A DNA stretch of 64,000 bases from contig JAHLWR010000016.1 in the NCBI GenBank assembly GCA_019057815.1, forward strand, positions 21,959-85,958, read 5' to 3'. Position 1 is the first letter of the stretch; each line of letters begins with the position of its first letter. Positions 44,620 through 64,000 of the stretch are shown here, piece after piece. This DNA comes from Candidatus Heimdallarchaeota archaeon (lineage in GTDB: Archaea > Asgardarchaeota > Heimdallarchaeia > Heimdallarchaeales > Heimdallarchaeaceae). The translations under genes and the position numbers were made by a program. The notes under the pieces were generated by a model that saw only the letters and a program-made list of their open reading frames with translations, made no database searches and was not told the origin of the DNA.

Positions 44620-47328
44620 TTAAGTATTTGATTTGTTTTTTGCTGATGAACTCTTAGAAACAGTTTTCTTTGTTTTGGATGTAGGTTTCTTTGAAGTAGA
44701 TTTAGAGGTTGAAGATGGTTTTGTTATCTTTTTGGTTGGAGATTTCTTTGCTATGGGTTTTTTTTCTTCTGATTTTGTCTTGATTTCTTTTTTACTACTA
44801 GTTTTAGTTACTTTCTTAGTTGTAGTTTTTTTCGCTTGGGTTTTTTTTGCAGGTTTCTTAGTTTCTTTTTTAACAATAGGCTTTTTCTCTTTCTTTTCTT
44901 CTTCAACTATTTGCTCTTCTTTCTCATGAGCTTGGACGATATACAATCGCCCATTAACAAGTTCAATTTTTGCAGAGATCTCTTCTTTAAGTATCAAATC
45001 ATAAGTTAATTTCTCTACTTCTTCACTTGATAAGCCAATTCTTTCAGCAAATATATCCAAAGGAATAGATCCTACTTTTGAAAGACTCTCAATATACTTT
45101 TTCTTTAACATCTCGAATTTAATTTTTTCAGGAACATCCCTACCACTCAATATCATCGCTAAAGATTCATATGCTCCATCTTTAAAGGCATCAATTATTT
45201 TCGATATAATGTGTTTTGAAGCCCCATTTATATTGTATTCATCAATTGAATCGCAGAAGAGTTTTAGACTCTTTCCGGACATTTCTCCAATTATAGATAA
45301 ACCTGATATCCATGAATCGAACATAACAACTAATTCTATTATTCTATGCAATATTATCTCATTAGGTTTTTCTGTTTCTATTGCTTCATTGTAAAGTTTA
45401 ATAAGAATTTTGGCTATTATACTCATCATTTGAGGATCATCAGCACTGATTACGTTTAGAAGGCGTCTTAACTTCTCAACTACATTTATTTCATCTGTGT
45501 AAAGGTGCTTGACTATAAATGAGTCAATAATTTCCTCTGCGATTGGTAAAGAGCTATTTATGATTAACATTGAAGTCTTGAGATAATTCAGGAATTCTTT
45601 ATCGTCTATTGTCCACATACATTTATTTAACAGCTCTTCAAGACGTTCTCTGTAGTAGTTTCGTTTGTGTGCTGCGAGAAAAGTCACAATATCAGCTATT
45701 CTTTCTTCAGGTTTAAGTGCTATTACTTTTGCTAGTTTCACTAACAGAAGTTTGAATATCTTGTCAACTAATAGAGGATTGTTTTGTAAAGATAGTAAAT
45801 CAGAAAAAATAACTTCTACTCCCGATGAATTCAAAGATAATGCTCGATCTATAAACGACCCAATTATTTGCTCATCCGCGTCCATCGATTCAAAATCTGT
45901 CCATTCTAACTGATTTATTTGTTCTATTCCAGGAAGAGCAAAGTGTGCATTTTCACTAATAGATATTTCAGATTCAGGAAGGCTTTGGTTTTCAGTAACG
46001 CTTTCTTTAGGAGGAGGAGCAGGAATCGTATCTATATCTTTTGTTTCTTTAATGATGTCCATTTCAAACTCGTCAGTTAGACTTTCATCTACAATTTCAC
46101 TCAAGACAATATCTTCTCTTGAATCTTGCACAGTTACCTTAGAAGCGCTCTCTTCTAAATTAAATTGTTCTAATAGTTCTTCTTCTTTTACTCGTTCTTG
46201 TTCACTGATGTCTTCCGACAAACTTTCAGGTTCACCCAGTAGGTCTTCAACTTGATCATCTGATTCTCTTTGTCTAAATAAATTAACTAATTTGTCAGCA
46301 ACACCTTCTCTTCGCTTTCTGGGCTCTATACTAATTGATTCCAATGATACTCCTACAGTCTTCAAAATAGTTTCGAAAAACTCTTGAGATTGTTGATTTT
46401 CAACATCTAATTCTTCTATTATTACACGAATACCAGCTTCTCGTAATTTAGAAACAAGCTCTGTGTTCTTCTTTTCTATTATTATTGTGTCTACAGTCTC
46501 TTTTATCAATTCAACAATATTAATCAAGCTAGATTCAAAATTCATTTTGTTTAAAATAGCTTTTTCATAGACACTTAACTTTTCCTCAACCCAGAATGGA
46601 GATAAGAACACAATTTCACCAGTTGTTCTTTTAAGTGCTTCGCAAAAGCTTTCAGATTGAAATAAAATATATAAAGATACTAAGTCAGTTGGAACAATTA
46701 TAACAGCTGTTGCATTAATAATTCTCTTTGAAGCTTCACTGCAGAGTCTCATTTTTTCTATTTGCTCTATATCGATAATACCTGTTATCTTTTCTAACTC
46801 AGCTTCGATTGATTTAGAATTAACTTTCCCATCCTGTTTTCGAATTTCTATTTCTTTACCGATTAAGAACTGTCTAACAGGTATCTCTACATCACCATTT
46901 TTCATGTGCAGTATTCTTATTTCATCAAATATAGGAAAAATGAAATCTTCATCGAATACTGCTTTTGTGATTTCTCTCCAAGCTTTCAAGTAATTGTCAT
47001 TTCCTTGTTTGATATCTGTTGCAAAACGAGAAATCAAATAATTCAAGGTTGATAATTGTAAAGGGTTATAAAAATCGAAATATTGACCTAAAGCTTCGAA
47101 AACACCAAGAGATTCGATGTTGAGTTTAGCTTTTATTTCAATCAGACTTGTAAACTCGATGTGATATCTTAATATTTTTGAGGGGTCAGAATGGTGAATT
47201 AAAAAGTCACTAGAATTATTTGCAATCATAGAAAGTGCAATATCCCCTTTATGCAAAAGTTGTTCAACAAAGGGGCTTGTTCGAAACCCTACATTCACAA
47301 CTGCAATTTCCTGTTCTGATGACATCAA
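44620..47328 (-). CDS. Large protein: CofD/YvcK-like N-domain, acidic linker, helical solenoid, PCI-like wHTH, Lys/Thr/Ser-rich tail
   Basis: I.L..FAERIGLS.EEVEKL...LI....ISAKI (PCI wHTH); KKPAKKT tail; N-terminal pattern like degenerate CofD. Confidence 0.55.
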   Translation of the reverse strand: MMSSEQEIAVVNVGFRTSPFVEQLLHKGDIALSMIANNSSDFLIHHSDPSKILRYHIEFTSLIEIKAKLNIESLGVFEALGQYFDFYNPLQLSTLNYLISRFATDIKQGNDNYLKAWREITKAVFDEDFIFPIFDEIRILHMKNGDVEIPVRQFLIGKEIEIRKQDGKVNSKSIEAELEKITGIIDIEQIEKMRLCSEASKRIINATAVIIVPTDLVSLYILFQSESFCEALKRTTGEIVFLSPFWVEEKLSVYEKAILNKMNFESSLINIVELIKETVDTIIIEKKNTELVSKLREAGIRVIIEELDVENQQSQEFFETILKTVGVSLESISIEPRKRREGVADKLVNLFRQRESDDQVEDLLGEPESLSEDISEQERVKEEELLEQFNLEESASKVTVQDSREDIVLSEIVDESLTDEFEMDIIKETKDIDTIPAPPPKESVTENQSLPESEISISENAHFALPGIEQINQLEWTDFESMDADEQIIGSFIDRALSLNSSGVEVIFSDLLSLQNNPLLVDKIFKLLLVKLAKVIALKPEERIADIVTFLAAHKRNYYRERLEELLNKCMWTIDDKEFLNYLKTSMLIINSSLPIAEEIIDSFIVKHLYTDEINVVEKLRRLLNVISADDPQMMSIIAKILIKLYNEAIETEKPNEIILHRIIELVVMFDSWISGLSIIGEMSGKSLKLFCDSIDEYNINGASKHIISKIIDAFKDGAYESLAMILSGRDVPEKIKFEMLKKKYIESLSKVGSIPLDIFAERIGLSSEEVEKLTYDLILKEEISAKIELVNGRLYIVQAHEKEEQIVEEEKKEKKPIVKKETKKPAKKTQAKKTTTKKVTKTSSKKEIKTKSEEKKPIAKKSPTKKITKPSSTSKSTSKKPTSKTKKTVSKSSSAKNKSNT

Positions 47329-51061: not shown

Positions 51062-51769
51062 ACAAATTCACTGATTATTAACAAAGCTAGTTTGTATCAG
51101 TTTAAAAATTTTTTTAACGAGGGGGAGCAAAAAAAGTTACCTCCTTCTCTTTAACGAAGCTAGTTTGCATCTTCTGACACTATCTGGTTTAACACTACTA
51201 ATAGTAAGTTACCACCTCCTCTTTTGACGGAGCTAGTTTGTAACAACTATTGAAACCTTTTACGACGGCGATTTTGCTAGGTTACCACCTCCTCTTTTGA
51301 CGGAGCTAGTTTGTAACATCCATCAAGAAGAACTCTCTTACACAACTATACAAAAGTTACCACCTCCTCTTTTGACGGAGCTAGTTTGTAACCAGTTAAT
51401 TATCATGGGAAAATTAAAAAGAATTAAGGTTACCACCTCCTCTTTTGACGGAGCTAGAATGTAACAACAACAAGGAGGTGAAAGGGCAAAATGAGATTTC
51501 GCGTTACCACCTCCTCTTTTGACGGAGCTAGAATGTAACGGAGAATCAAAAAAGGGCGATGTGTGACGCTCTTTGGTTACCACCTCCTCTTTTGACGGAG
51601 CTAGAATGTAACGAAAATTGTTCAGATAGAAGCCGAGATGGCTTTCAAGTTACCACCTCCTCTTTTGACGGAGCTAGAATGTAACCCCTTACCTTCCTTT
51701 CAAGGGAGGTAAGGAGAACAGTAAAAAGTCTCGTTACCACCTCCTCTTTTGACGGAGCTAGAATGTAAC
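51062..51769 (-). CRISPR. CRISPR array 1: 8 intact 37-bp repeats plus 2 degenerate trailer repeats
   Basis: GTTACCACCTCCTCTTTTGACGGAGCTAG(TT/AA)TGTAAC at 51208, 51281, 51356, 51429, 51503, 51576, 51649, 51733; degenerate at 51136 and ~51062; leader on the right. Confidence 0.97.
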
Positions 51770-51880
51770 CGCGGGGATTCTGGTTCTAGTAAACGTTTTA
51801 TCAGTTTTCACTTTCACCTCGTATACTAGTTGTAGCGTACGCTATTTTCTCTTTCTCCCTCATTCTTAAAGTTTTTGCTG
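51770..51880 (-). promoter_or_regulatory. Leader of CRISPR array 1
   Basis: Minus strand AAAACTTTAAG (BRE/TATA) about 100 nt from the repeat; ACTAGAA-N11-GCG junction shared with the array 2 leader. Confidence 0.75.
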
Positions 51881-51964
51881 TTTCTCGAGCTCTAGCATTT
51901 TTTCTCTTTTTACGTTACTTCGTTTAAGGCTCTAAGAAAACGTTTTTTATTGTTCATATTACTG

Positions 51965-56685: not shown

Positions 56686-57081
56686 CTATGTTGTTATGAA
56701 GGAACGAGATACAAAGTCTGTCCTCCACCCATTCAAGATACGGACCTGAGCAAGAACGAGTTTTCCCCAGTTGGTGAATCCTATCGCAGCATAGCGACTA
56801 TCCTTTGTTCGTGCTTCCCAGTCTTTTACCGTACCCATACGCTTATCGACTCTAAAAGTTCCTTTGATAATGCTTCGAACCCCAAGTGTCTTGAGGTATT
56901 GTTTAGGTGTTTGATAGTACTGTTCGATACACTTGTTTTGTAACGCATGTCCTACTTCTGTCACTCTCCCTTTCTTGTAGAGGAACTGTAGAATAAACTC
57001 GTCAGTACACCCTGGGTCATCGAATGGCTTGAAAGCGGAGTCTCTCCAATATTTTTGGTACAGTCGTCTTACCATGGGCAT
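56686..57081 (-). pseudogene. C-terminal fragment of an IS4/IS5-like DDE transposase
   Basis: Y...LGVRSIIKGTF..DKR resembles Y-x-R-x2-IE-x2-F-x3-K with the catalytic E lost; higher GC than the flanks. Confidence 0.55.
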
Positions 57082-57337: not shown

Positions 57338-58135
57338 TTAAGCAATTTCGAATTTGCCAAAACCATAAGAAGTTTTGCTACCAATTTGATAGAATTTAGC
57401 AAGAGACAAAAGCTTACCAATTTCATCATTCATTTTTTTGAGTTTGTAAGTGATTTCGCCAAAAATACCTTCTAATTTTATAGGTTTACCTTTACGTCTA
57501 TGTTGATTCCAAGAGAACAAACGAAGATCATAATTTTCAACAGTAACAGGAATATTTCTCCAGCTGCGATCCCAATGAATAGGGTAGCAACTAAGAAGAT
57601 GGAATTTGTTAAAACGATTGACACTTCGAACCAATGAATCGAGAAGAAGGGAAAAATCAACAAAAAGACAAGGCTTACCAGAACGATAGAAAGAAGTAGG
57701 AGAAATAAGACGGATACGGAGAAAAGGAGAAGGGGAAAGAGGGGAGAAAAAATCATTACGAATTTGAACATGAGAAAGAGAAGCATCTTTACCTGCAATA
57801 TGGAGATGCTTTATGCCAGAAAGAACATGAACAAATTCAGAAACAAGGTCCTCAAAAGAATCTAAAAAGAGAAAATGGGCGAAAATGCCAGAAGAATTAT
57901 GAGTAGTATAGAAAAAATAAGGACGAAAAGGAATAAGAGAATCACAAAAAACAGAGTGAAGAGAAGGGGAATCAAATAAATGAGAACCGAACCAACCACG
58001 AAGAACAGGACCATAATAAGGTAAATGAGAGAAAGAAGGAAAATCAATGAAAAAAGAAACATGAATGACTGAATGAGAAAGAAGCGATGAAAGAGAAGGA
58101 GAAAAAAACGAAGAAGAGGAAGAAGAAGGAGACAT
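57338..58135 (-). CDS. cas6: CRISPR endoribonuclease Cas6
   Basis: G..LRG.FG, RPY, SPT, GIFGEITY, C-terminal Gly loop IGSKTSYGFG; start reassigned to ATG 58135. Confidence 0.9.
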   Translation of the reverse strand: MSPSSSSSSFFSPSLSSLLSHSVIHVSFFIDFPSFSHLPYYGPVLRGWFGSHLFDSPSLHSVFCDSLIPFRPYFFYTTHNSSGIFAHFLFLDSFEDLVSEFVHVLSGIKHLHIAGKDASLSHVQIRNDFFSPLSPSPFLRIRLISPTSFYRSGKPCLFVDFSLLLDSLVRSVNRFNKFHLLSCYPIHWDRSWRNIPVTVENYDLRLFSWNQHRRKGKPIKLEGIFGEITYKLKKMNDEIGKLLSLAKFYQIGSKTSYGFGKFEIA

Positions 58136-58189
58136 AAAATGGAAAAAGAAAAGAAATATATCAAGTTTTAGATAAGCAAAGAGAAGAAA

Positions 58190-58293
58190 AAAAGAAAAGG
58201 TTAATAAAGAAAAAAAAGAAGAAGAAAGAAGAAAAAAAAAAGATAAGAAAAAGAGAAATGGAAAAAACAAGGACTAGAAGGAATTTCGTTGCG
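58190..58293 (+). promoter_or_regulatory. Leader of CRISPR array 2 (divergent from cas6)
   Basis: AAAAGGTTAATAAA about 93 nt upstream; ACTAGAA-N11-GCG immediately before the first repeat. Confidence 0.7.
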
Positions 58294-58476
58294 GTTACAA
58301 ACTAGCTTCGTCAAAAGAGAAGGTGGTAACGAAAAGTTTCTTTCCTGAGGGGATTGCAAAGGGCATGTTACAAACTAGCTTCGTCAAAAGAGAAGGTGGT
58401 AACATCCTTTGATTATGTTGTTCAAGTTTGGCTAAGTATGTTACAAACTAGCTTCGTCAAAAGAGAAGGTGGTAAC
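58294..58476 (+). CRISPR. CRISPR mini-array 2: 3 repeats, 2 spacers, opposite orientation to arrays 1 and 3
   Basis: GTTACAAACTAGCTTCGTCAAAAGAGAAGGTGGTAAC at 58294, 58367, 58440; 36-nt spacers. Confidence 0.95.
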
Positions 58477-58549
58477 CAATACGATTGATCAAGGAATCAG
58501 AATTATATAACAAAAACGATTTTTATGTGCAAATTCTTAGGTTAAAGCT

Positions 58550-59045
58550 GTAATATTGCTACCAGCGTCTCATTTTCTTTTAGACTTTTGAAAGAATATT
58601 CTATCAGGATCTATCATGCAGGTTCTTCTTCACCCATTCCCCAAGAGAGATTCTAATCTTCTTTCTTGGGCTTGAAAGTAATCAAGTGTAAAAGCAAGAA
58701 GGAAATATCCTTCATTTGGGAGAAACCAAGGTTCTTTTACTGTTTCTTTATATATTCCTCGTTGTTTAGTTTTTAGTAGTTGAAGAAAGACTTGTAAGCT
58801 TGTTCTGTTTTTCGTGTTGCTTGTTGTGCAACTTGTGCTGGAAGTCTTTGATAATACTCATTTGTTTTAATTGTTGGGTATGCTTTGTTGTATGTGAAAA
58901 AAGTCCTTGTTGACTCCCATTCCTTTTTCATTAACCATAATGTGAGGTAATAAACATCTTTTGACCATCGTGTAAGTTGTTTGAGTATCCAGTACGTTTC
59001 TTTGTTTAATGATCTTAAATGGTTTTATTATACTAAAAATATCAT
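58550..59045 (-). pseudogene. tnpB: Degenerate N-terminal part of a tnpB
   Basis: Hand translation NHLRSLNKETYWILKQLTRWSKDVY...NEYYQRLPAQVAQQ...YKSFF with stops and frameshifts; upstream ttcctatttaaac matches the promoter region of tnpB 15182-16435. Confidence 0.8.
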
Positions 59046-59188
59046 TTCTTCATCTTTACTTTCCTATTTAAACCCCAGTAAGACAATCAACTGAATGTAT
59101 TAGTACTCGAAAAAGTTCATTATTGTACAAAAAAACAAAACCTATAGTAAATTTAATAAATTATATATAAATAATACTAAGATAAATC

Positions 59189-62100
59189 ATGTACAGTAAA
59201 TTAAAAGAACAAGAAGTGGCATTACTTAAGACATTGATACAAGACAATAGTGAGAATTTAGACTACAATATTATAAATATTCCACGATCTACTGAATTTT
59301 TCATTAATCTTGAAATTGAATCAGATAAATGGAATTTAACACACATTAGTATTGTCACTAGAGCAGACCATCATAGTGAAATTATATTATTGCTAGCTTT
59401 TAATTTAGATGCAAGACGTTTAGTGTTATGTCTCTTAGATGATAATTATGAGATTAATATATACACACAGACTGATGATTCACAAATAATTTACATGAAA
59501 AGTCCTAATTTACTTGATGGTATTGTTATCAGTGATATAGAAACCGTTATAGTAAGTATTTTGTTGGACTCTATGCAGAAAGAACAAAAGAAATTTAGAG
59601 AGTTTTTTACATACTTTCAAAAAAATAATAACCTTCCTCCCATACGTTTCAACTTACTTAAAGAACTACTCCTAAATAAAAGGAGAACATTATTCTTACT
59701 ACATAACGCTTCTTGTACTATAGAACAGCTAATAACTTCACATAGGAATGCAAAGGGAAATTTATTTAGCTTACATTCCTTAAATACTAAAAGTGTCAAA
59801 ACTGATTATAGCATCTCTAGTTATTTGTATAGTTTCAACTTTAGTAATCTCACTGTAGGTTTCTACTTTTCTTTATCTTCAATAGAAATAGGAAAATACA
59901 AATTTTGCTCTATAAAAATAAGTCCAGCAAAGAGAGGAAGTTCTACTCTCACTTATACTTGTGACTTAACAACTTTAACTAATGTTTTTCAAGAAAAATC
60001 AACAACTCTATTTGATTTAAGTGCAAATACTAATTATCCTAAAATAGACAATAAAGATGATAAAAAAGCAGTAGCCATAATTTGCGATTTTCCTAACCCC
60101 ATAATTGTCAAATCAATTCCAGAAAAAGAATTGAATGCTATTATTGATTCATTTTCTATTATTGCAATTTATGCAAAACTTTCCAACAGATTGAATTTAG
60201 CTAAACTAGAGAATTTGTTAGGATTGAAAATAGAAAAAACTAATATCCCTTTTTGTACTAAAATACGTTCAGCTGCAACAATCAGTAAACATATCCTTAG
60301 AAATTATTTAGTCCAAAAACTTAATCTAGATTTATATATAATTCAAAAAAACATTAAAAAATCACACAATTTCCTACAAAACTACAAACAGACTTACTTA
60401 GGTGGAAAAGTTGAGTGCTTTATTCACGGACTAGTCGAAACTACACTTGAACAAAAAATCTATTATTTAGATTTTACTGCTCTTTATCCTCATGCAGCTT
60501 GGATTTGTGAAGCACTATGGCTTTATCTTGTTTGTTCAAAGAATGAAATACAAAAATACATTAGAAAAGATATTAGCAATGTTATAAAACGTATTAAATT
60601 GAGTGTTAATGAAATTATTGAGAGTATAATAAAAAAGAAACCTTTACAAAAAAGAATCTTTCAAGGATTGGTAGGAAATTGCACTATTCACAGTGACATA
60701 CTCCTACAATTACCTAGAGACTTTAAGAATAAGAAAGTTGATTTGTTAGTTAAAGGACAAATATCAACTACACTCGTTGATCTCTCTCTAGCTATTGTAA
60801 GGGAAATTATAATTCATAAAAGACAAATAGATGAAATCTTTAGTCAAATTTCTTTTATAAAAGCAGAATATATCGATTTTCCTGTTTCATCTGAATATGG
60901 CAAAGAATTTTTTTCAATTCTCTGTTTATTTCGTAAAGATATCAAAGCAGAAATAAGAGAAATAAAAGAAAACCTCAAAAAAGGGAATAGCGCTAAAATT
61001 ACTATTTTAGAGTGTGAGCAATTATTTGTAAAAATTTTGATGAATGCTTGTTGTGGAATAAGTGGAGAAGGGATGTTAAATGAAAAATATACAGGAATTT
61101 TCTGTAATCCAATAGTGGCAAATGCAATATCAACCATTGGTCGCGCTTTTATTACTGTTGCTGAAATAACGGTTGATCACATTAACGCGTTAAAAATATA
61201 TACAGATACAGACAGTATCTTTGTTCGAGCTACAAAGACACAGCAAGAATATTTGTTATCTGTTTTTCAAGAAACTATTTTACTGAAAGACGAAATAGAA
61301 GAGAAATATAAGGATGGAGATTATATTACTCACATTTACATAGCAGGTAAGAAGAAATATGGCTACAAGACAAGTAAAGGTAGAATAGTATTCACTACTC
61401 ATAGTAAGGGGCAGTACTTGACAGAACCCTTCAAGAAAGCTCTTAAAGAATCCTATAAATACCTTTTTACGCCTACCTTCACAGAAGATACAACAGATAA
61501 AGCAGGTGAGATAGCATCACAATATCATAGTTATTTACAGAATGTTACTCTAAGCAGTCAGAAAAGCAGTATCTATACGGGTTTAAGAAAATTCAATAAA
61601 AGAACAATTACTTCTTATACTTGGCAATGGGAAGGAATAACCATCTATGTTAAATTTAATCTTCCGAATGGAAGTTACCTTGTAACTAATACTAGACAAA
61701 TCACAAAAGGATTAACTGGGGAATATTTGAATATTACAAAAGGAAAGAACAAATTGATCTTTTTCATTACCATATCAATAGATGTTGATAAACTAATTAG
61801 TGATTTTATAAAAAAATTTGATACAACAAATGAGGATATATTATTTAAGAAACAAAAAACCACCAACTCGTTACAAGGGTTTTATGGTTCTAATAATACT
61901 TATTATCTACAATATCTCTTGAATGATTATATCAGTTTTGAACGAAAAAAAATTGTTAAATATTACAAAAATTATTGGCTAGATGTTTATTATGACTGTA
62001 AGATAAATAATAAAGAACCTTTAGGAAAGAAAGAATTACTCTTATGGGAACAAATAACAAATTATAATAATTTAGAAGAAATAAAGAAACAAGCAGCTTT

Positions 62101-62506
62101 ACTGTTACATTCTTGGTATTTCCAGGAGTCAAATCAATTGAGTTTTGAAAAATCAGTAAAAGAGATTAAAGATTTAGATTTAAACTTTCTTAACCATCCA
62201 ACTTATCAGCTCTATCAAAACATTCTCTCAGAAGTATGTAAGGGGGTAACTATTACTAAGATCATACAAAACTCTATTAGTAAAATAGTAGCAGGATTTC
62301 AAACACTTGATGTTCTTATTGACCAATTAGTTACTAAAATAGAGAATAAGGAACACATTAAAAGAAGGATGCAAAATTACTTTCAGTACAACGAGCACAA
62401 AATTACTCGAGATATAGCTGAATATAAAGAAACCTTCATAATTACAAAACCTCAAGATGACAAAGTTAATGATGAAGAAATCCAAAACATTAAAGAAAAA
62501 TCATAA
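59189..62506 (+). CDS. polB: Family B DNA polymerase, protein-primed/casposon-like, degenerate exonuclease
   Basis: YLGGKVE, motif A DFTALYP (aa 428), motif B KILMNACCG (aa 615), motif C YTDTDS (aa 671), KKY. Confidence 0.85.
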   Translation: MYSKLKEQEVALLKTLIQDNSENLDYNIINIPRSTEFFINLEIESDKWNLTHISIVTRADHHSEIILLLAFNLDARRLVLCLLDDNYEINIYTQTDDSQIIYMKSPNLLDGIVISDIETVIVSILLDSMQKEQKKFREFFTYFQKNNNLPPIRFNLLKELLLNKRRTLFLLHNASCTIEQLITSHRNAKGNLFSLHSLNTKSVKTDYSISSYLYSFNFSNLTVGFYFSLSSIEIGKYKFCSIKISPAKRGSSTLTYTCDLTTLTNVFQEKSTTLFDLSANTNYPKIDNKDDKKAVAIICDFPNPIIVKSIPEKELNAIIDSFSIIAIYAKLSNRLNLAKLENLLGLKIEKTNIPFCTKIRSAATISKHILRNYLVQKLNLDLYIIQKNIKKSHNFLQNYKQTYLGGKVECFIHGLVETTLEQKIYYLDFTALYPHAAWICEALWLYLVCSKNEIQKYIRKDISNVIKRIKLSVNEIIESIIKKKPLQKRIFQGLVGNCTIHSDILLQLPRDFKNKKVDLLVKGQISTTLVDLSLAIVREIIIHKRQIDEIFSQISFIKAEYIDFPVSSEYGKEFFSILCLFRKDIKAEIREIKENLKKGNSAKITILECEQLFVKILMNACCGISGEGMLNEKYTGIFCNPIVANAISTIGRAFITVAEITVDHINALKIYTDTDSIFVRATKTQQEYLLSVFQETILLKDEIEEKYKDGDYITHIYIAGKKKYGYKTSKGRIVFTTHSKGQYLTEPFKKALKESYKYLFTPTFTEDTTDKAGEIASQYHSYLQNVTLSSQKSSIYTGLRKFNKRTITSYTWQWEGITIYVKFNLPNGSYLVTNTRQITKGLTGEYLNITKGKNKLIFFITISIDVDKLISDFIKKFDTTNEDILFKKQKTTNSLQGFYGSNNTYYLQYLLNDYISFERKKIVKYYKNYWLDVYYDCKINNKEPLGKKELLLWEQITNYNNLEEIKKQAALLLHSWYFQESNQLSFEKSVKEIKDLDLNFLNHPTYQLYQNILSEVCKGVTITKIIQNSISKIVAGFQTLDVLIDQLVTKIENKEHIKRRMQNYFQYNEHKITRDIAEYKETFIITKPQDDKVNDEEIQNIKEKS

Positions 62507-62615
62507 TTTAATGAAAAAAGTATAGTGTGATCATGAAAACGACTAGATCCTATTTTATAAAAAACTATACAATTTGCACATTTCAAAGAGTTATGATTAA
62601 ATTTGTCAATTATCA

Positions 62616-64000
62616 GTTATCTCCTCTTCTTCTACTATAGTTAGAGAATAGTTATGGGATAGAAGGAGAATGAATCCGAAGTGTTATCATAAGTTATTAT
62701 CTCCTCTTCTTATTGAGCTAAAATGTAACTAGAGCTGATTCTGTCTATTTAACTCAAAATGTCTATACGTTACCACCTCCTCTTTTGACGGAGCTAGAAT
62801 GTAACCCTCTCTCAGCCACCCTCCCAAGAAGAAATTTTGGGTTACCACCTCCTCTTTTGACGGAGCTAGAATGTAACTTCTACTAGTTTTTACGAAGCTG
62901 CAAGGATAGAGTAGTTACCACCTCCTCTTTTGACGGAGCTAGAATGTAACTTATCAGGAGAACTGGCTGATAATCACAGAAACCCGTTACCACCTCCTCT
63001 TTTGACGGAGCTAGAATGTAACCTTCTCAAGCAGAAGCCAATCAATAATGACCTGCGCGTTACCACCTCCTCTTTTGACGGAGCTAGAATGTAACGCTTA
63101 AGTGGCTTCCCAAGAACTGATTTATAATCTTGTTACCACCTCCTCTTTTGACGGAGCTAGAATGTAACAAAATCAGAAAAGAAGTACAACACTGTCATGG
63201 AAGTAGTTACCACCTCCTCTTTTGACGGAGCTAGAATGTAACGACTCAAGAACGTCTTCGTTACGGAGCACTTTGTAGGTTACCACCTCCTCTTTTGACG
63301 GAGCTAGAATGTAACTTAATAAGGTGAGTTTTACAAAAACTGAATAATGAAGTTACCACCTCCTCTTTTGACGGAGCTAGAATGTAACGCCCTTGACATA
63401 TTCTTAAACAAATTGGTTACTTTAAGGTTACCACCTCCTCTTTTGACGGAGCTAGAATGTAACGCCCTTGACATATTCTTAAACAAATTGGTTACTTTAA
63501 GGTTACCACCTCCTCTTTTGACGGAGCTAGAATGTAACGTCTTTAATGTGCGGAGGATTGTGGACTGCAAGTTTTTGTTACCACCTCCTCTTTTGACGGA
63601 GCTAGAATGTAACGTGAATATCCTAACTTCTGCTCAATTAATTCTCCCCGTTACCACCTCCTCTTTTGACGGAGCTAGAATGTAACCTGATCAGTTGGGG
63701 TATAAAAGGTGGGCTCCAGATGTAGTTACCACCTCCTCTTTTGACGGAGCTAGAATGTAACGATTGCTTCTTGAAAAGGCCCGCAGAGTTTATCCTCAGT
63801 TACCACCTCCTCTTTTGACGGAGCTAGAATGTAACGTTTGGAGAAAAGTATAGTAAGTTAAGCGGAGAAAGATGTTACCACCTCCTCTTTTGACGGAGCT
63901 AGAATGTAACGGCACGTTCGGTAGAATGACCGCTGGTTTATTAGAAGTTACCACCTCCTCTTTTGACGGAGCTAGAATGTAACGTTTGGAGAAAAGTATA
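62616..64000 (-). CRISPR. CRISPR array 3: 17 identical repeats plus 2 degenerate trailer repeats; continues past the window end
   Basis: GTTACCACCTCCTCTTTTGACGGAGCTAGAATGTAAC from 62769 to 63983, spacers 35-39 nt; degenerate copies at 62693 and ~62616. Confidence 0.98.

Follow-up and report, generated by a model that had tools for sequence, protein, structure and literature searches.

What is the gene of a family B DNA polymerase (PolB) doing between two opposed CRISPR arrays, and does the polymerase serve the CRISPR-Cas locus in which it lies? This question is raised by a stretch of 64,000 nucleotides of Candidatus Heimdallarchaeota archaeon (assembly GCA_019057815.1, contig JAHLWR010000016.1, positions 21,959 to 85,958 of the forward strand), hereafter the window, in which a reading frame at 59189-62506 on the + strand encodes a polymerase of 1105 amino acids (P0001). 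The original prediction, made from the sequence of the window, described an intact, casposon-like PolB with a suggested insertion of the kind found in protein-primed enzymes, and saw in it either a domesticated polymerase of a mobile element serving CRISPR or a casposon relic. As outlined here, the gene derives from a family of giant polymerases found on small circular elements of Asgard archaea, and the account that we regard as probable, with appreciable room for others, is that it is a captured fragment of a mobile-element replicase, now a dispensable accessory gene with an unknown or non-CRISPR role.

Taken alone, P0001 has no match in Pfam, NCBIfam, PHROG or the sequences of the PDB. An exhaustive HMMER search of 1.84 billion representative sequences yielded only 27 clusters for its family, which is thus a rare one; the weak tail of the phmmer list carries PF00136, and one relative (P0010) has a recorded match to the same model. 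A profile of 24 family members compared with the PDB recovered archaeal PolB, Pol alpha, Pol delta and Pol II down to E 1e-10, with no phi29-type chain among its 57 PDB matches. The AlphaFold2 (AF2) model of P0001, which has a predicted local distance difference test score (pLDDT) of 80.9 and a predicted template modelling score of 0.78 and is poor at residues 880-1037, contains the N-terminal, exonuclease, palm, fingers and thumb domains. Its top 50 PDB structure matches are all PolBs, and Foldseek aligns it with KOD, 9N, Tgo, Pol epsilon, Pol alpha and herpes simplex virus polymerases over 800-1000 columns with E-values to 5e-13. By fold and profile, P0001 is a genuine, deeply diverged family B polymerase.

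Fold alone cannot place this family among the PolBs, because a viral structure library scores RNA-primed and protein-primed enzymes at similar E-values for P0001; every sequence link of the family goes to the PF00136 group. In the original prediction, a spacing of about 185 residues between motifs A and B was taken to suggest an insertion as in protein-primed enzymes, and the distance from motif A Asp428 to motif B Lys615 is indeed 187 amino acids, including about 100 extra residues modelled as helices and a long hairpin at 496-528. This insertion, which lies between motif A and the fingers, is real and occupies the position of terminal protein region 1 (TPR1) in protein-primed and primer-independent enzymes (phi29 type, PF03175; pipolin piPolB), and the spacing of 58 amino acids between motifs B and C is too short for a TPR2-like insertion. 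A place in the protein-primed class is not supported. PF03175 has no match in P0001 or in five relatives, no terminal protein is recognised, and two complete relatives are circular instead of linear with inverted ends as in the phi29 type. In whole-chain fold, in motifs A and C and in the KxY motif, P0001 resembles the RNA/DNA-primed PolBs (KOD, 9N and Tgo; Pol alpha, delta and epsilon; E. coli Pol II; PF00136). It differs from them in that P0001 itself matches no Pfam, NCBIfam or PHROG model, in the extra residues between motifs A and B and in the loss of its exonuclease residues, and the full-length members of the family differ from them by an additional N-terminal region of about 100 amino acids and a C-terminal one of about 480.

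The origin of the gene is seen in these relatives, whose complete members measure 1591-2037 amino acids. Two of them are encoded on closed replicons: contig L003 (1-19740) has a perfect self-overlap of 4762 bp and a period of 14978 bp, and is thus a complete circle of 15.0 kb, and contig L002 (1-18366) carries a terminal direct repeat of 114 bp, which gives 18252 bp and a complete circle of 18.3 kb. In both of them and in L001, the polymerase is accompanied by a protein with Toprim and Topoisom_bac domains, a divergent topoisomerase IA-like enzyme; genes for a DnaA-like ATPase and a Cas4-like nuclease are additionally present on L002, and no capsid gene was recognised on the circular elements. 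The copies in L001 and L008 stand among host-like genes and are probably integrated. Closest homologues in proviruses or plasmids without CRISPR linkage, together with relaxed selection on the window copy, had been named in the original prediction as what would refute it; the first of the two is the picture obtained, the homologues being in plasmid-like elements, with Cas1 or a CRISPR array in 0 of 11 relative contexts (L001-L005, L008, L011-L013, L026 and L027). A tblastn search with the full-length relative P0003 found no match in plasmid or phage collections, and IMG/VR returned only distant PolBs with 26-34% identity to it over 90-150 amino acids. In Asgard archaea, the family is matched in 6 of 400 genomes, in several of them as C-terminal-only fragments. 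At four loci (L016-L019, from the Asgard genomes G049, G044, G070 and G060), open reading frames (ORFs) of 486-963 amino acids have their match to the giant polymerase in its C-terminal part alone, the complement of what the window copy keeps; they represent either integrated copies in decay or forms in which the C-terminal domain stands by itself. Neither the family nor a PolB inside an Asgard CRISPR locus is described in the passages searched of PMC8813620 (Wu 2022), 10.1101/2021.07.29.453957 (Medvedeva 2021 preprint), PMC7544198 (Kazlauskas 2020), PMC12680538 and PMC13700489, and the circular elements of 15.0 and 18.3 kb are apparently an undescribed replicon type.

Measured against this family, the window polymerase is a truncated protein. 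It had been called intact, and its frame is in fact open throughout in the ORF analysis of the window, but every complete relative is far longer. Over its full length, P0001 aligns to residues ~109-1203 of P0003 with 47% identity (47-51% to P0003 and P0004), so that about 106 N-terminal and about 490 C-terminal residues of the relatives are missing. The gene is present in a single copy in the genome, and no leftover N- or C-terminal gene pieces were found. Two other proteins of about 1140 amino acids, P0018 and P0019, were considered as natural short forms and ruled out, as contig ends cut both.

The C-terminal region that the window copy has lost (about 480 amino acids; residues 1200-1689 of P0003) was examined in the full-length relative. 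Its AF2 model (pLDDT 88.2) consists of two helix-grip/TBP-like halves. Foldseek found nothing below E 0.001 for this domain, the best match being the rolling-circle initiator RepD at E 0.03; with VIA-align, all Z-scores were below 8 (Bet v1/START-type helix-grip 7.7, TBP 7.3, RepDE 6.4), and an Atlas feature search gave scores below 0.9. Among the invariant residues of the domain are a Tyr, two Lys, two Arg and a Glu. As a lead only, the domain might be considered to bind DNA or to act as an initiator.

The state of the catalytic motifs was established by comparing 22 other family members with the window copy and its 94% orthologue. The segments quoted in the original prediction (TYLGGKVEC, YLDFTALYP, YTDTDS and HNASCT) are all present, as is KILMNACCG, and its description of them, with catalytic Asp residues kept, the YG of motif B changed to CG and degenerate exonuclease motifs, agrees with this comparison. 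Exo I (59354-59362, + strand) is DxE in 22 of the 22 others, V56-T-R58 in the window and ITK in the orthologue. Exo II (59714-59719, + strand) is (Y/F)D in the others, C-T in the window (C176-T177) and in the orthologue, and C-N in the copy of a metagenome-assembled genome (MAG) described below. At Exo III (YxxxD), the Y...D of the 22 others is replaced by N...D in both the window and the orthologue. The polymerase motifs are better preserved. Motif A (YLDFTALYP; 60464-60490, + strand) is intact, with Asp428 and Tyr433 invariant in the family; motif C (YTDTDS; 61199-61216, + strand) is intact and kept in all but one other member; and KKKY at residues 721-724 is intact and largely kept elsewhere. 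Motif B (KILMNACCG; 61031-61057, + strand) keeps its Lys, Asn and Gly and has Cys in place of the invariant Tyr/Phe of the others. The exonuclease fold is retained in the model (pLDDT ~90) though its catalytic residues are gone, and the former exonuclease positions still vary among strains (V/I, R/K and, in the MAG, T/N). Loss of the proofreading site predates the divergence of the strains sampled, and the protein, if made, is most likely a DNA polymerase without proofreading and with lowered fidelity, as its motifs and fold suggest. PolBs with an inactivated exonuclease domain are known, e.g., Pol alpha, Pol zeta and archaeal PolB2 (Kazlauskas et al. 2020, PMC7544198). The window protein shares with them an exonuclease fold without catalytic residues next to kept polymerase motifs. 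Those enzymes are old, widespread and cellular, whereas the window PolB is a recent derivative, confined to one genus, of a mobile-element enzyme whose other relatives have all retained the proofreading motifs.

On either side, the gene is cut off at the border of the insert, which is formed by a TnpB remnant on the left and an array trailer on the right. The remnant, already noticed in the original prediction, is of the IS200/IS605 type (58641-59101, - strand) and consists of the element end and the first ~128 tnpB codons, broken by stops; it ends 88 nt from the PolB ATG. Its nucleotide identity to full copies on contigs C1 and C12 of the genome is 71-73%, the C12 copy encoding a 417-amino-acid OrfB_IS605 + Cas12f1-like_TNB protein. 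On the other side, the trailer (62530-62768) contains two degenerate repeats and has a paralogue (~93%) in the array-4 trailer of contig C20. Since this homology begins 24 nt past the PolB stop codon, the trailer marks the right edge of the captured fragment. Transposon-like 'long spacers' inside CRISPR arrays have been reported (Kupczok et al. 2015, PMC4524480), and the present case is similar in that foreign DNA bearing an insertion sequence (IS) remnant lies between repeats that act as recombination substrates. It differs from them in comprising a 4.3-kb cassette with a selected ORF, inverted flanking arrays and a flip between strains.

The inverted brackets around the gene, and their convergence, were both correctly recognised in the original prediction. 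The 37-nt CRISPR repeat GTTACCACCTCCTCTTTTGACGGAGCTAGAATGTAAC has 25 copies on the + strand of the window, where none is expected by chance: eight in array 1 (51208-51769) and 17 in array 3 (repeats at 62769-63983, feature to 64000), which runs off the window at the contig end. Mini-array 2 (58294-58476, - strand), with three degenerate repeats and two spacers, is reversed with respect to array 3, and PolB is therefore bracketed by inverted repeats. The direction in which the arrays are read follows from a comparison of leaders and trailers. Over the 190 nt examined, the high-coordinate flank of array 1 has the same sequence as the stretch that separates the array from cas2 on C20, and is thus a leader; on the low-coordinate side, the flanks of arrays 3 and 4 resemble each other at ~93% over ~240 nt, with two decayed repeats, and represent the trailer. 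Array 3 is accordingly read from the leader adjoining cas2-cas1 on C20 toward PolB. A leader-like flank at 58256-58293, on the cas6 side of mini-array 2, weakly resembles the leader start, and mini-array 2 would likewise be read toward PolB, so that both arrays are directed inward. The leader duplicates lie at 51770-51960 in the window, adjoining the 3' end of the TIR-SAVED gene, and at 279-470 in L006 (C20), adjoining cas2.

The only other contig of the genome with GTTACCACCTCCTCTTTTGACGGAGCTAGAATGTAAC is C20, which has arrays at both its ends; between them lie cas2, cas1, five RAMP (repeat-associated mysterious protein)/small-subunit genes, cas10 with an HD domain, and a second cas6 before array 4. 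To the left of the cassette, the window contains cas6 (copy a; 57338-58270, - strand; PF10040, E 4e-14), the outer neighbour of mini-array 2, followed by Csm6, a TIR-SAVED protein of 972 amino acids, array 1 and a second Csm6. Together, the window and C20 form a complete type III locus with several arrays. As the first array end of C20 continues array 3, cas1 lies just beyond array 3. The statement that no casposase, capsid or terminal-protein gene is present is therefore right for the cassette itself, where ORF and profile scans between the arrays found no Cas1, capsid or terminal-protein gene, and incomplete for the locus. Between csm6 and cas6, the window also has a 131-amino-acid ORF (56686-57081, - strand), of which a 91% paralogue is located on C20 next to the second cas6 (L006 9868-10317, + strand); it is probably another IS fragment, because the paralogue weakly matches the DDE transposase model PF13586 (E 9e-4). 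Two neighbouring spacers of array 3, at 63389-63426 and 63464-63501, are identical and represent a duplicated repeat-spacer unit. Eukaryote-like domains, i.e., a PCI domain in the window (44620-47328, - strand) and a YEATS domain in L001 (19621-19923), are consistent with an Asgard host.

Comparison with close strains revealed that the cassette is invertible. The same cassette, at 95.6% nucleotide identity, occurs in the Logan contig L007, between or ending in inverted repeats. In the ~95% identical MAG contig L009 (BPTO01000026, 'Candidatus Heimdallarchaeota archaeon 8H_bin2'), the order is cas10...cas1, array, PolB (+), three repeats, cas6 (+), csm6 and TIR-SAVED, whereas the window in the same reading direction has array 3, PolB (-), three repeats and cas6 (+). 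The flanks of the two (cas6/csm6/TIR-SAVED and cas1-cas10) are collinear and the cassette alone is reversed, for which recombination between opposed CRISPR repeats is the simple explanation. Inversion is also indicated by a contig of run X5, in which the end of the TnpB remnant is joined through a repeat to an array-3 spacer of the window on the opposite strand. A joint of run X5 at 58330/62950 was set aside as trivial, one of its sides being no more than a repeat (38 nt). The CRISPR-linked form of the gene is found in 2 of the 400 Asgard genomes, both of the same genus. Despite the ~95% DNA identity, the arrays of the window (with C20) and those of L009 have no spacer in common, trailer ends included, and are thus wholly turned over or exchanged. 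None of the 45 spacers of the window, C20 and L009 convincingly matches the PolB elements, PolB itself or the rest of the genome; the best match (20/22 nt, E 0.008 per query) is at chance level over 45 queries.

Whether the protein matters to the cell can be judged from the substitutions accumulated since capture. Between the window and L007, the ratio of non-synonymous to synonymous rates (dN/dS) of PolB is 0.32 overall, without indels; the N-terminal and exonuclease part has the same value (0.32), palm and fingers have a lower one (0.20) and the last third a higher one (0.85). When changes are assigned to lineages, that of the window has 33 synonymous and 35 non-synonymous ones (pN/pS 0.26) and that of L007 has 24 and 39 (0.40); the lineage of the MAG (L009), in which the gene is broken, has 13 and 36 (0.69), and the counts of the window and MAG lineages differ (Fisher p = 0.02). 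The relaxed pattern of the broken copy indicates that this way of counting can detect relaxation. Although ~5.9% of the possible substitutions would create a stop, none has arisen among ~130 changes in the two intact lineages. The values of 0.26-0.40 compare with 0.16-0.58 for the neighbouring cas genes over the same divergence, and PolB is thus as constrained as they are; the relaxed selection on the window copy that would have spoken against the original prediction is not observed. As constraint persists after capture, the protein probably has some use. Even so, the gene is dispensable, since it has been kept in two lineages and destroyed in at least two others. In L009 and in run X4, an IS with a DDE transposase lies after codon 48, together with a 2-nt deletion and a 1-nt insertion, and a contig of run X3 joins 59163 to 60333, a deletion of 1169 bp that removes the start and 381 codons. 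At the cas1 position of L009 (7539-8147), the ORF has 202 amino acids, compared with 339 on C20, and cas1 may be damaged in this MAG too.

In favour of a casposon origin speak the inverted repeats of 37 nt that enclose PolB and the presence of cas1 on the far side of array 3, and a PolB gene near cas1 with inverted repeats on both sides is what casposons have. In that case the cassette would be what is left of a self-synthesising Cas1 transposon whose inverted ends are, or became, CRISPR repeats. The cas1 gene of the locus, however, belongs to an ordinary cas1-cas2 pair beside a leader. No casposase is encoded in the cassette and no Cas1 in the 11 contexts of relatives, two of which are circular replicons. 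Instead of being terminal repeats of an element, the inverted repeats belong as ordinary units to two arrays that have spacers of their own, and no sign of mobility is seen, with one copy per genome at a single site in three strains. The casposon-like character proposed for the gene is consequently not supported, and a casposon relic is so improbable that it hardly enters the balance. A service to the type III system, e.g., gap filling after spacer integration by Cas1-Cas2 or prespacer synthesis, with read-through transcription from the array pointing at PolB, has more in its favour: in every strain seen the gene has its place within the locus, it is as constrained in dN/dS as the cas genes, its polymerase motifs are kept, and the inward direction of both arrays would place it downstream of an array in either orientation. 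Polymerases truly tied to CRISPR adaptation are the reverse transcriptase-Cas1 fusions of type III systems and the CRISPR-associated PrimPol, which recur across many lineages, fused or adjacent to cas1. The window gene is similar to them in being a nucleic-acid polymerase gene within a CRISPR-Cas locus. It differs from them in being restricted to one genus, with an array between it and cas1; linkage to a cas locus does not recur across independent lineages (2 of the 400 Asgard genomes), the 11 other contexts have neither CRISPR nor cas genes, PolB is broken in populations with seemingly undamaged cas genes, and an IS remnant and a trailer are the edges expected from accidental capture. Of the domesticated mobile-element polymerase serving CRISPR in the original prediction, the mobile-element origin and the purifying selection thus stand, and the CRISPR service, for which position is the one positive argument, appears decidedly unlikely in view of the one-genus linkage and the destruction of the gene in two related populations.

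Another alternative is that the gene is an inert relic, its frame being intact in two lineages because capture was recent or by chance. It lacks both termini and the proofreading site, residues at the former catalytic positions continue to drift (V/I, R/K and T/N), the C-terminal third evolves nearly neutrally and related populations have two independent disabling histories. Against this, the capture common to the three lineages is older than all substitutions counted, 33 synonymous stand against 35 non-synonymous changes in the lineage of the window where about 1:4 would be expected under neutrality, and 3.3 kb of AT-rich sequence show no indel and no stop where about four stops per lineage would be expected. 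We hold this alternative to be unlikely, although it deserves more credit than the others. It could also be that the shortened plasmid replicase has a working place in the defence island of its host, either as a proofreading-free polymerase aiding type III adaptation or interference, or as a dominant-negative decoy that, devoid of the N- and C-terminal domains of its relatives, would poison the replication of incoming plasmids with a PolB of this family, its dosage being set by whichever array reads into the invertible cassette; this we consider quite unlikely.

The probable account remains that of a captured replicase fragment kept as a dispensable accessory gene. The donor would have been a plasmid-like circular Asgard element of 15-18 kb encoding a giant PolB of ~1700 amino acids, a topoisomerase IA-like protein and other replication proteins. 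A fragment of its replicase would have been stranded once in the type III locus of an ancestor of this Heimdall-type genus, with both gene ends cut at the edges of the captured piece. The family C-terminal domain is gone and the proofreading site is lost, while the core fold and the polymerase motifs remain. Recombination between repeats of the opposed flanking arrays would flip the cassette, and the gene has been retained in two lineages under purifying selection of the strength seen in cas genes and lost in at least two others. Of this account, origin, truncation, motif status, inversion, selection and loss are observed; polymerase activity and the way of capture are inferred. Several points weigh against this account. 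Purifying selection implies that the protein probably serves the cell, which the stranding of a fragment leaves unexplained, and a position conserved within the CRISPR-Cas locus of each strain seen would fit a role linked to the locus. At the C-terminus, the cut lies near a domain boundary and could reflect selection instead of accident. The change from Tyr to Cys in motif B and the missing termini could abolish polymerase activity, and the C-terminal third is nearly neutral (dN/dS 0.85) and models poorly at residues 880-1037. Finally, the evidence for inversion comes from short-read assemblies that cross repeats, and the join between array 3 and C20 is inferred from repeat orientation and synteny with the MAG.

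In all, the attractive link from casposons to CRISPR is not there, and three other points of interest are left. A family of giant PolBs, apparently undescribed and without a Pfam or PHROG model, appears to replicate small circular elements of Asgard archaea, organisms with barely known mobile elements. The locus moreover provides a clear example from nature of CRISPR repeats that serve as inverted sites for recombination, with a 4.3-kb cassette flipped between close strains. A replicase fragment without proofreading that is under selection inside a defence locus is thus a candidate for the exaptation of a mobile-element gene by a host near the eukaryotic ancestor.

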